This document shows, one piece after another, positions 37,389 through 40,004 of a stretch of DNA of 64,000 nucleotides. The notes beneath the pieces were generated by a model, which had not been told where the DNA came from, searched no databases, and saw only the letters and a program-made list of their open reading frames with translations. The first letter of the stretch is position 1; every line of letters begins with the position of its first letter. The stretch lies in NCBI RefSeq assembly GCF_055900595.2, contig NZ_CM148325.1. One strand, 5' to 3'. The translations under genes and the position numbers were made by a program.

Positions 37389-38267
37389 TTAGGCTTGCAG
37401 TTCCAGCCCAGCCAGCCGTCTCCAGTAGCCGTTACAGTCGCTGTTTGCCGTCAACGGGAGTGGTGCAGCGCCATTTTCATTAGCGCGGAAGGCGTCGAGC
37501 ATAGCGAAAGTGTCAGTACCCTGCGGTGACAGGCGGACCACATCAACCAGCCCCTGCATGGATGCCAGCTCGTTACCGAGGTTGTACACGTAGCCGCTCA
37601 TGGTCTGAATGCCATTGAGCACAAACACTTGTTGGTTTTCCTGCGACAGCACGTTGCGCCCGTTCGGATACTTAATGCAGCAGGTTTCACACTCATCTTT
37701 TGGGCGGTCTTCCGAACGCGCGGTAAAGCAGCGGGCGGAGTAGGCCAGCGGCAGATGACCGTAGCTCAAGACTTCCACTTCAAACTGGTTGCGAATGCCC
37801 AGCTCATCGCACTGATTAAGCAGATTCACCAGCCAGTCGCGGGAAAGTTCCACCGGCATACACCAGCGCATCATGCCCTGTTTGAGTAATATTTTCAGCG
37901 TCACCGCGTTGTAGCAGTTCAGCGCGTGTCCGGCGACGAACGGCAGTTTGCGCTCAGCGCACATATTCACCACGCCAAGATCGCTGGCTTCAATCAGAAA
38001 CTCACCGTTCTCAACATAGCGTTTCAGTTCGCCCAGTTCGGAGGATGCCTGCACCAGCGCCAGCGTGGAGAGCACAATCTGCTTGCCACTTCCGGCGAGC
38101 GATTTTGCCATCTCCAGCCAGTCGCCAACTTTGGTTGCCCGGCGTTTGCTACAGACCGCTTCACCGAGATAAATCACGTCTGCGCTGCTGGCGGCGGCCT
38201 GCTGATAAAAATCTTCCAGCGTCTCTTTTGGCCAGTACCACAGCACCGGCCCTAAGGAATATTTCAT
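37389..38267 (-). CDS. ubiV: U32-peptidase-family protein UbiV (YhbV), O2-independent ubiquinone biosynthesis
   Basis: ATG at 38267 gives MKYSLGPVLWYWPKETLEDFY..., 292 aa. Confidence 0.85.
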   Translation of the reverse strand: MKYSLGPVLWYWPKETLEDFYQQAAASSADVIYLGEAVCSKRRATKVGDWLEMAKSLAGSGKQIVLSTLALVQASSELGELKRYVENGEFLIEASDLGVVNMCAERKLPFVAGHALNCYNAVTLKILLKQGMMRWCMPVELSRDWLVNLLNQCDELGIRNQFEVEVLSYGHLPLAYSARCFTARSEDRPKDECETCCIKYPNGRNVLSQENQQVFVLNGIQTMSGYVYNLGNELASMQGLVDVVRLSPQGTDTFAMLDAFRANENGAAPLPLTANSDCNGYWRRLAGLELQA

Positions 38268-38275
38268 TGCTCTTC

Positions 38276-39271
38276 TCACTGCCATTTACGGTGATACGCG
38301 CCAAGAGTGGTTTGCGTGCCTTCGGACATCGACCCGAGCGTCTCCATCCACGCGCTTTGTGGTACGAAGTTTTGCGGATCGGCCTTACAACGGTCGATAG
38401 CCTGACGCCAGACTTTTGCCACCTGGCTGACATACGCCGGGCTACGCTGGCGGCCTTCAATTTTCACCGAAGCGATATTCGCCGCCATTAACTCCGGCAG
38501 TAGCTCAAGGGTATTGAGACTGGTTGGTTCTTCCAGCGCGTGATAGCGCTCGCCGTCCACCAGATAACGCCCTTTACACAGTGTCGGATAACCTGCGTTT
38601 TCGCCGTCCTGATAACGGTCGATCAGCACTTCGTTCAGGCGAGATTCCAGCCCCTGCGGCGTTTGCTGCCAGCGCACGAAACGGGCCGGAGAACATGCCC
38701 CCACGGTGTTGGGCGACTCACCCGTCAGATACGACGACAGATAGCAACGACCTTCCGACATAATGCACAGACTGCCGAAAGCGAACACTTCCAGCGGTAC
38801 AGGCGTGACCCGCGCCAGTTGTTTCACCTGATGAATCGACAACACGCGCGGCAGCACCACGCGGGCAACGTCAAAATGGCGATGATAAAAGTGAATCGCC
38901 TCTTCATTGGTTGCTGAAGCCTGCACTGACACATGACGTTCAATATGCGGGTATCGCTGGGCGGCGTACTCCAGCATGGCGAGGTCGGCGAGAATCAGCG
39001 CATCGGCACCCAACTGCGCCGCCATATCCACGGCGCGCTGCCAGCGGGCGTAACCGTCCGGATGCGCAAAAGTGTTAATCGCGATGTGAAGTTTGCGGCG
39101 ATGTTGATGGACAAAACTCACCGCTTCCTGCAATTTTTTCTCGGTAAAGTTAAGGCCGGCGAAGTGACGGGCATTGGTATCATCTTTTAGCCCGATATAA
39201 ACAGCATCTGCGCCGTTTTCGATGGCCGCCTTAAGCGCCGGGAGATTTCCGGCAGGGCAGAGCAGCTCCAT
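38276..39271 (-). CDS. ubiU: U32-peptidase-family protein UbiU (YhbU), O2-independent ubiquinone biosynthesis
   Basis: ATG at 39271 gives MELLCPAGNLPALKAAIENGADAVY..., 331 aa. Confidence 0.85.
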   Translation of the reverse strand: MELLCPAGNLPALKAAIENGADAVYIGLKDDTNARHFAGLNFTEKKLQEAVSFVHQHRRKLHIAINTFAHPDGYARWQRAVDMAAQLGADALILADLAMLEYAAQRYPHIERHVSVQASATNEEAIHFYHRHFDVARVVLPRVLSIHQVKQLARVTPVPLEVFAFGSLCIMSEGRCYLSSYLTGESPNTVGACSPARFVRWQQTPQGLESRLNEVLIDRYQDGENAGYPTLCKGRYLVDGERYHALEEPTSLNTLELLPELMAANIASVKIEGRQRSPAYVSQVAKVWRQAIDRCKADPQNFVPQSAWMETLGSMSEGTQTTLGAYHRKWQ

Positions 39272-39479
39272 AATTTTTCCTGAAGGGTGCGCTATCAAAA
39301 CGCAAAAATGTTAACGAACTGGGATTTTAGTTAACCTTGCAGCGACAATTTTTGATTTAAGGCAGTTAAAGTTGTATTGGTGGTAGCAGCAATTTCATAT
39401 GGAATTGTTGATTTATACCGCTATGTTATTTTTCTGATATGGCAAAATAGGATGATTGTTGAAACAGGGAGTAAAACTC

Positions 39480-40004
39480 GTGTTGGATAAACTGCGTTCC
39501 CGTATTGTGCATTTGGGGCCATCTCTGTTGAGTGTACCGGTAAAACTGACGCCATTTGCGCTAAAACGCCAGGTTCTTGAGCAGGTCTTAAGCTGGCAAT
39601 TCCGCCAGGCGCTGGATGATGGCGAGCTGGAGTTTCTTGAAGGGCGCCGGTTAAGTATTCATGTGCGTGATATTGACCTGCAATGGTTTACCTCGGTGGT
39701 GAATGGCAAACTGGTCGTTAGCCAGAACGCGCAAGCTGATGTGAGTTTTAGTGCCGACGCCAGCGATCTGCTGATGATTGCGGCGCGTAAACAAGATCCG
39801 GACACGCTCTTCTTCCAGCGTCGGCTGGTGATTGAAGGCGATACGGAGCTGGGGCTGTATGTGAAAAACCTGATGGACGCCATTGAACTGGAGCAAATGC
39901 CGAAAGCCTTACGCATGATGCTGCTGCAACTGGCGGATTTTGTTGAGGCGGGAATGAAAACCGCGCCTGAAACCAAACAGACATCGGTAGGTGAACCATG
40001 CTAA
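39480..40004 (+). CDS. ubiT: SCP2-domain protein UbiT (YhbT)
   Basis: GTG at 39480 gives MLDKLRSRIVHLGPSLL..., 174 aa; divergent from ubiUV; start codon choice uncertain. Confidence 0.8.
   Translation: MLDKLRSRIVHLGPSLLSVPVKLTPFALKRQVLEQVLSWQFRQALDDGELEFLEGRRLSIHVRDIDLQWFTSVVNGKLVVSQNAQADVSFSADASDLLMIAARKQDPDTLFFQRRLVIEGDTELGLYVKNLMDAIELEQMPKALRMMLLQLADFVEAGMKTAPETKQTSVGEPC

Follow-up and report, generated by a model that had tools for sequence, protein, structure and literature searches.

How FNR-dependent, anaerobic control can be exerted from an intergenic region in which no FNR palindrome is apparent is the question raised by the divergent ubiT and ubiUV genes. We analysed this region within a window of 64,000 nucleotides (contig NZ_CM148325.1, assembly GCF_055900595.2). 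The window belongs to an E. coli chromosome: of 5426 complete E. coli genomes, 5424 were matched by a query of 501 bp taken from around the region (blastn, at least 95% identity), with ubiT and ubiU as the annotated features under the match. A first-pass annotation made from the letters alone had referred to FNR-dependent control of these genes and had noticed only TTGAT half-sites between them, so that any FNR site was expected to be non-canonical. The divergent gene layout it described was borne out by blastn and annotation. On the minus strand ubiU occupies 38276..39271, as supported by the list of open reading frames, the K-12 annotation (996 bp) and a colinear alignment to K-12, and it starts at the ATG at 39271 to give the 331-aa product annotated in K-12. 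An in-frame TTG at 39298 was rejected as the start codon on the grounds of the K-12 annotation (996 bp, 331 aa). The second gene of the operon, ubiV (37389..38267, minus strand; open reading frame and 879 bp in the K-12 annotation), begins 9 nt past the last base of ubiU. On the plus strand ubiT extends from a GTG start at 39480 to 40004, and its 174-aa translation matches the K-12 annotation. The control region of both strands is therefore the 208 bp from 39272 to 39479. The earlier description of a 180-bp AT-rich stretch (39299-39479) was right as to composition, with 34.6% GC in the control region versus 51.6% in the window, and slightly too short in extent; its boundary at 39299 stems from the upstream TTG at 39298 in the list of reading frames.

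The comparison with the K-12 intergenic sequence that had been proposed revealed near identity. Only two of the 208 bases differ from MG1655, at 39287 (G/T) and 39341 (A/T), and both differences fall outside the two FNR sites described for K-12. The 14-mers of these sites, their 56-bp start-to-start spacing, the genes and the promoters are the same in both sequences, and we found no relevant difference; the window represents another E. coli strain. The regulation of the ubiT/ubiUV region is thus already known and has been validated on essentially identical sequence. Arias-Cartin et al. described two Fnr-binding sites in the intergenic region, F1 (TTGATTTAAGGCAG) and F2 (TTGATTTATACCGC), and thereby documented the anaerobic, FNR-dependent control (Arias-Cartin et al. 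2023, mBio, PMC10470549). Sequences identical to these lie on the plus strand of the window at 39352..39365 (F1, activating ubiUVp) and 39408..39421 (F2, activating ubiTp2). The two half-sites quoted in the first-pass annotation (ttgatttaagg... and ttgatttatacc...) are the first bases of F1 and F2, respectively. In K-12, F1 is located 36 nt upstream of the ubiUVp transcription start site (TSS), whereas F2 is located 33 nt upstream of that of ubiTp2 and 19 nt downstream of that of ubiTp1. When fnr was expressed from pBAD in a fnr deletion strain, strong activation was seen for the fusions of ubiUVp and ubiTp2 but not for that of ubiTp1. A five-base chromosomal mutation of F1 abolished UbiV production without oxygen, and both the mutation and the deletion of F2 abolished the anaerobic induction of ubiT, while the aerobic basal level of UbiT remained intact after mutation of F2. 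Each mutation affected its own operon only, the F1 mutation leaving ubiT expression unchanged (all PMC10470549).

Binding of FNR at this locus has also been reported in vivo. Myers et al. described an FNR peak at yhbT/yhbU that was detected with each of three ChIP-seq peak callers as well as by ChIP-chip and that had already appeared in a previous ChIP-chip data set, and they classed yhbUV as directly FNR-activated (Myers et al. 2013, PMC3688515). We converted the coordinates between genome versions with a shift of +1978, calibrated on the garP/garD site of that study. The ChIP-seq summit at 3,299,423 is thereby placed at 3,301,401, inside F1 (3,301,391-3,301,404) and about 60 bp from F2. Only one motif was counted in this peak (PMC3688515), and direct occupancy of F2 therefore rests on genetics and not on resolved ChIP or footprinting. 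The best motif of the peak had a PatSer ln(p) of -8.72, which is under the prediction threshold of -10.75, and the motifs across FNR peaks range from about -4 to -16.5 (PMC3688515). Hence, F1 is not unusual among the sites that FNR occupies in vivo, and a near-consensus palindrome is predictive of such sites but not required.

By sequence the two sites are inconspicuous. A pattern search for TTGATNNNNATCAA with at most two mismatches gave no match in 39272-39479. TTGAT is present in the control region at 39352 and 39408, and ATCAA is found only once, at 39294. F1 and F2 are three-mismatch matches to TTGATNNNNATCAA with every mismatch in the right half; this class occurs at near chance frequency in the window (290 observed versus about 243 expected) and therefore carries little information. 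For the matrix scan that had been suggested with the first-pass annotation, we used a symmetrised FNR weight matrix derived from 63 predicted FNR sites under ChIP-seq peaks (Myers et al. 2013, Table S6). Among the 63,987 positions of the window, F1 ranked 17th with 8.9 bits and F2 158th with 3.2 bits, which makes them the best and second-best matches in the control region. No better palindrome turned up. Both are below the weakest of the 63 training sites (12.0 bits; the training sites span 12-21 bits) and fall short of a high-confidence prediction. In dinucleotide shuffles of the region, a best match of at least 8.9 bits was reached with P = 0.10 and a second match of at least 3.2 bits with P = 0.26. 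The empirical frequency of the F1 score (2.7e-4, ln about -8.2) is in line with the published ln(p) of -8.72. Pattern search and matrix scan thus agree with the earlier observation of TTGAT half-sites lacking an ATCAA partner at the right spacing, and taken by itself the sequence contains no significant canonical FNR site in the control region. The absence of an obvious consensus site is not equal to the absence of FNR sites, however, as F1 and F2 are functional.

The single ATCAA (39294-39298) constitutes a third FNR-type half-site, located in the 5' UTR of ubiU, 23 bp before the start codon. It pairs with GGGTG, has a matrix score of -3.3 bits and lies at a poorly conserved position. It is probably a chance match.

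The architecture of the two sites explains why no palindrome is visible, namely that in each a perfect TTGAT is combined with a weak other half. F1 reads TTGAT-TTAA-GGCAG and F2 reads TTGAT-TTAT-ACCGC, and the right halves GGCAG and ACCGC each retain two of five consensus bases. This degeneracy of both right halves agrees with the expectation that any FNR site here would be non-canonical. Neither site is a near-consensus TTGAT-N4-ATCAA palindrome; both possess the TTGA half-site and, after the N4 spacer, the symmetry-related C at position 12. A repeat search also detected a 13-nt direct repeat on the plus strand, AATT[T/G]TTGATTTA, with copies at 39347..39359 and 39403-39415, 56 bp apart, each copy comprising the perfect half of F1 or F2 with its extension. 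The repeat contains a perfect half-site together with the spacer (TTGATTTA) that occurs in the strongest known sites, TTGATTTACATCAA and TTGATTTAAATCAA. These belong to the class II promoters of narK and nirB (TTGATTTACATCAA) and yfiD (TTGATTTAAATCAA), which share with F1 and F2 the perfect left half, the spacer and the placement at about 41.5 bp. In contrast to F1 and F2, whose right halves match ATCAA at two of five positions only, the narK, nirB and yfiD sites are full palindromes. FNR sites with a G-rich right half are known from aqpZ/ybjD (TTGATTTAGGGCAA) and hcp (TTGATTTAGCGCAA) (Myers et al. 2013, Table S6). Between the aqpZ/ybjD site and F1 just two positions differ, namely 9 (in the spacer) and 14, which shows that FNR can bind in vivo to a site with GGCA in its right half. 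At position 14 F1 ends in G whereas aqpZ/ybjD ends in A, and G is the rarest base there (1 of 126 half-sites).

The positions of F1 and F2 relative to the promoters point to class II activation. We derived the transcription start sites from the distances stated in the text of PMC10470549. For ubiUVp this gives a TSS near 39316-39317, with the centre of F1 (39358.5) at -41.5/-42.5, and a putative -10 hexamer, TAAAAT, can be read from the sequence on the minus strand at 39329-39324 in agreement with the published F1 distance. For ubiTp2 the TSS is near 39454-39455, which places the centre of F2 (39414.5) at -39.5/-40.5, and a putative extended -10 element, TGgCAAAAT, at 39440..39448 on the plus strand fits the published F2 distance. 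The -10 elements and the exact -41.5-type geometry are thus what we infer from sequence and published distances. The FNR-independent ubiTp1 would start at approximately 39388..39389 (plus strand) according to its 19-nt distance to F2. A sigma-70 consensus scan gave no convincing -10 or -35 hexamers for ubiTp1, and a simple sigma-70 scan gave no -35 consensus for ubiUVp or ubiTp2, which for the latter two is as expected for activator-dependent promoters. In the one weak sigma-70 match it is the second hexamer, AATTAT, that runs into the ubiU start codon. Myers et al. reported that in 19 of 23 FNR-activated promoters with known TSS the site is located at about 41.5 bp upstream (PMC3688515). With site centres at about -41.5 (+/-4) and recognisable -10 elements, ubiUVp and ubiTp2 both represent class II arrangements. 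The perfect half is the one nearer to the promoter in the case of ubiUVp and the one farther from it in the case of ubiTp2.

We are therefore highly confident that the region comprises two back-to-back class II FNR-activated promoters with a separate degenerate FNR site for each. According to this model, in the absence of oxygen [4Fe-4S]-FNR dimers bind F1, whose centre precedes the leftward ubiUV start by about 41.5-42.5 bp, and switch ubiUV on, and FNR at F2, centred about 40 bp ahead of the start of the rightward promoter ubiTp2, raises ubiT expression. In air, ubiTp1, which starts between F1 and F2, provides FNR-independent basal expression of ubiT. Each site consists of a perfect TTGAT half with the preferred spacer (TTGATTTA) and a weak other half that retains the critical C12, and the weak halves may set the threshold of induction.

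Conservation was examined within E. coli and beyond. The 84-bp stretch from F1 to F2 was at least 99% identical (without mismatch) in 5380 of 5424 E. coli genomes. For the comparison between species, a back-translated UbiU N-terminus was scanned in one genome per species, which yielded 120 ubiU loci; the 80 of these with ubiT divergently upstream (tblastn) formed the comparison set. F1 homologues were sought with the pattern TTGA[TC]-N6-CAG, in which positions 12-14 are fixed and positions 10 and 11 are free. The pattern was present in 71 of 80 intergenic regions, while about 0.008 matches were expected per region, and most of the 71 genomes carry a TAnnnT hexamer on the ubiU strand at a fixed offset. 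Both free positions were predominantly G (66/71 at position 10 and 67/71 at position 11), and the flanking columns drop to about 0.1-0.9 bits per column. F1 including GGCAG has been kept through Enterobacterales, Vibrio, Moritella and Aeromonas. Shewanella, Colwellia, Aliamphritea and Wohlfahrtiimonas have near-consensus intergenic FNR palindromes (15-17.5 bits), mostly at the F1-equivalent position. F2 homologues, i.e. TTGA[TC] centred 55-95 nt upstream of the ubiT start, were found in 68 of 80 genomes. Their right half drifts, with C12 kept in 57 of 68, and throughout Enterobacterales the gap of 18 nt from F2 to TGGCA[A/G]AAT is constant. The sequence CCGCTATG after F2 is highly conserved within Enterobacteriaceae.

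The conservation of FNR sites upstream of ubiTUV across Pseudomonadota is already published (ISME J 2024, PMC11707229). That study found in 96% of the divergent loci a candidate FNR site separating the two genes, and it names E. coli and P. aeruginosa as the only species in which ubiTUV FNR sites have been demonstrated directly. Our comparison of 80 genomes agrees with the FNR/Anr sites predicted there. The search described there used palindromic 14-bp motifs, and the text consulted does not address the conservation of the non-consensus half.

Two further observations concern the ubiU loci themselves. For 41 of 121, the search of up to 1.2 kb of upstream sequence revealed no ubiT, some loci having much less sequence. 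These loci are mostly from Vibrionaceae (L004, L008, L011, L013, L015 and other Vibrio, Photobacterium and Aliivibrio) and are consistent with the architecture with ubiT apart from ubiUV that was described in the ISME J 2024 study. In Ca. Pantoea persica (L024) tblastn matched UbiT residues 72-174 only, as compared with matches from residue 1-4 onwards in other Pantoea, which may reflect a truncation or decay of ubiT in this lineage associated with insects. L024 still carries the F1 motif TTGATTTAAGGCAG.

Other readings of F1 and F2 have to be weighed against this evidence. The TTGAT motifs could be due to chance or represent sigma-70 -35-like hexamers, with an indirect anaerobic induction of ubiTUV. 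TTGATT indeed resembles TTGACA at four of six -35 consensus positions, the shuffle statistics at the level of the region are not significant, and the simple sigma-70 scan provided no good promoter that would explain expression otherwise. Nevertheless, we consider this explanation very improbable, as the summit of the FNR ChIP peak falls inside F1, mutating either site abolishes induction of its own operon alone, the 14-mers persist over long evolutionary distances between decaying flanks, and both sites are found at class II distance from conserved -10 elements. Just as improbable is that another protein of the CRP/FNR family, CRP or YeiL, is the main reader of the sites. CRP and FNR sites share the TGA-N6-TCA core, and another member of the family might accept the unusual, conserved GGCAG half. 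However, F1 and F2 both have the FNR-type T-TGA and not the G-TGA of CRP, the published ChIP was on FNR, pBAD-fnr restores activation in the fnr deletion strain, and we found no evidence of another factor.

A different kind of alternative leaves FNR as the activator and concerns the weak halves. GGCAG of F1, and to a lesser extent CCGC of F2, may be functional themselves, either as part of a selected sub-maximal, asymmetric FNR site that would delay induction until oxygen is nearly gone, or through overlap with another element, for instance the core promoter of ubiTp1 or the site of a co-regulator. We regard this as possible, if on balance rather unlikely. The retention of G at the two free positions of F1 between decaying flanks argues for it. 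Moreover, among the 126 symmetrised half-sites of ChIP-supported E. coli FNR sites G11 is present in 4 and G14 in 1, so that FNR preferences do not explain their retention. The conserved CCGCTATG after F2 points in the same direction, and the induction of ubiUV, which has been reported only from 0.1% O2 down to anoxia, would fit. On the other hand, CAG at positions 12-14 was fixed by the search pattern, which leaves only positions 10 and 11 as independent evidence, and the taxa are related, so that the counts ignore kinship. The unchanged ubiT expression after mutation of F1 argues against a strong overlap of F1 with ubiTp1. Furthermore, the known FNR sites include the close relatives TTGATTTAGGGCAA and TTGATTTAGCGCAA, and no candidate for a second factor was found. 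With considerable doubt, then, we propose from the alignments that F1 as TTGAT-N4-GGCAG might be under stabilising selection that sets the oxygen threshold, or that GGCAG might be read by a second factor. A sigma-54 reading of GGCAG (-24 GG / -12 GC) was rejected by eye; the spacing to the downstream GC/GT is off consensus and varies between taxa.

Besides F1 and F2, the control region contains other elements. Between the two sites, at 39375-39391, many Enterobacteriaceae have a conserved inverted repeat, TATTGGTnnnACCAATA or TATTGATnnnACCAATA (among the carriers are L005, L016, L079, L094, L098 and L102 (Citrobacter), L063 and L108 (Enterobacter), L046, L048 and others). The repeat matches the PdhR box AATTGGTnnnACCAATT at 12 of 14 positions in Citrobacter and at 10-11 of 14 in Enterobacter, Kluyvera and Pseudocitrobacter, and it is always located about 107-108 nt from the ubiT start, where it coincides with the E. 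coli ubiTp1 start. In Escherichia its right arm is degraded (TATTGGTGGTAGCAGCAAT) and the best PdhR-box match is 10 of 14. The pattern suggests that in other genera ubiT is controlled by a pyruvate-sensing regulator of the GntR family, a control that would have been lost in E. coli. For E. coli itself PdhR was rejected, as the box is degenerate (10/14) and the text of the PdhR gSELEX paper does not mention yhbT/ubiT.

A second inverted repeat, AATGTTAACGAA / TTAGTTAACCTT, is located at 39307-39338 and includes two palindromic GTTAAC hexamers 20 bp apart. It brackets the -10 element and TSS of ubiUVp. In 31 species of Enterobacteriaceae the block ATTGTTAACGAACTGGGATTTTAGTTAACC shows a conservation of about 90-100%, which exceeds the need of a -10 hexamer, and the repeat could be a candidate operator over the ubiUVp core promoter. 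ArcA direct repeats are not supported as an explanation of the TGTTAA/AGTTAA pair, whose centre-to-centre distance is 20 bp and not 11; yhbT/yhbU is absent from the main text of the ArcA ChIP-seq paper. No match to the IscR type 2 motif was seen by eye. The only Rfam match, a sub-threshold one to CRISPR-DR22 on the minus strand (39412-39448), overlaps F2 and the ubiTp2 spacer. A structured RNA of this type was rejected and the match ascribed to chance (21.9 bits versus a gathering score of 50, E = 0.079, no repeat array).

Beyond the confirmation of the published control, the observation adds little to what is known of the ubiT/ubiUV locus. The case of F1 and F2 does illustrate that genuine FNR sites escape scans for a consensus or with a matrix, with P = 0.10 and 0.26 for two sites that are functional in E. 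coli. If the affinity of F1 is indeed tuned, this site would show cleanly, in a natural setting, that selection can favour weak binding of a transcription factor.
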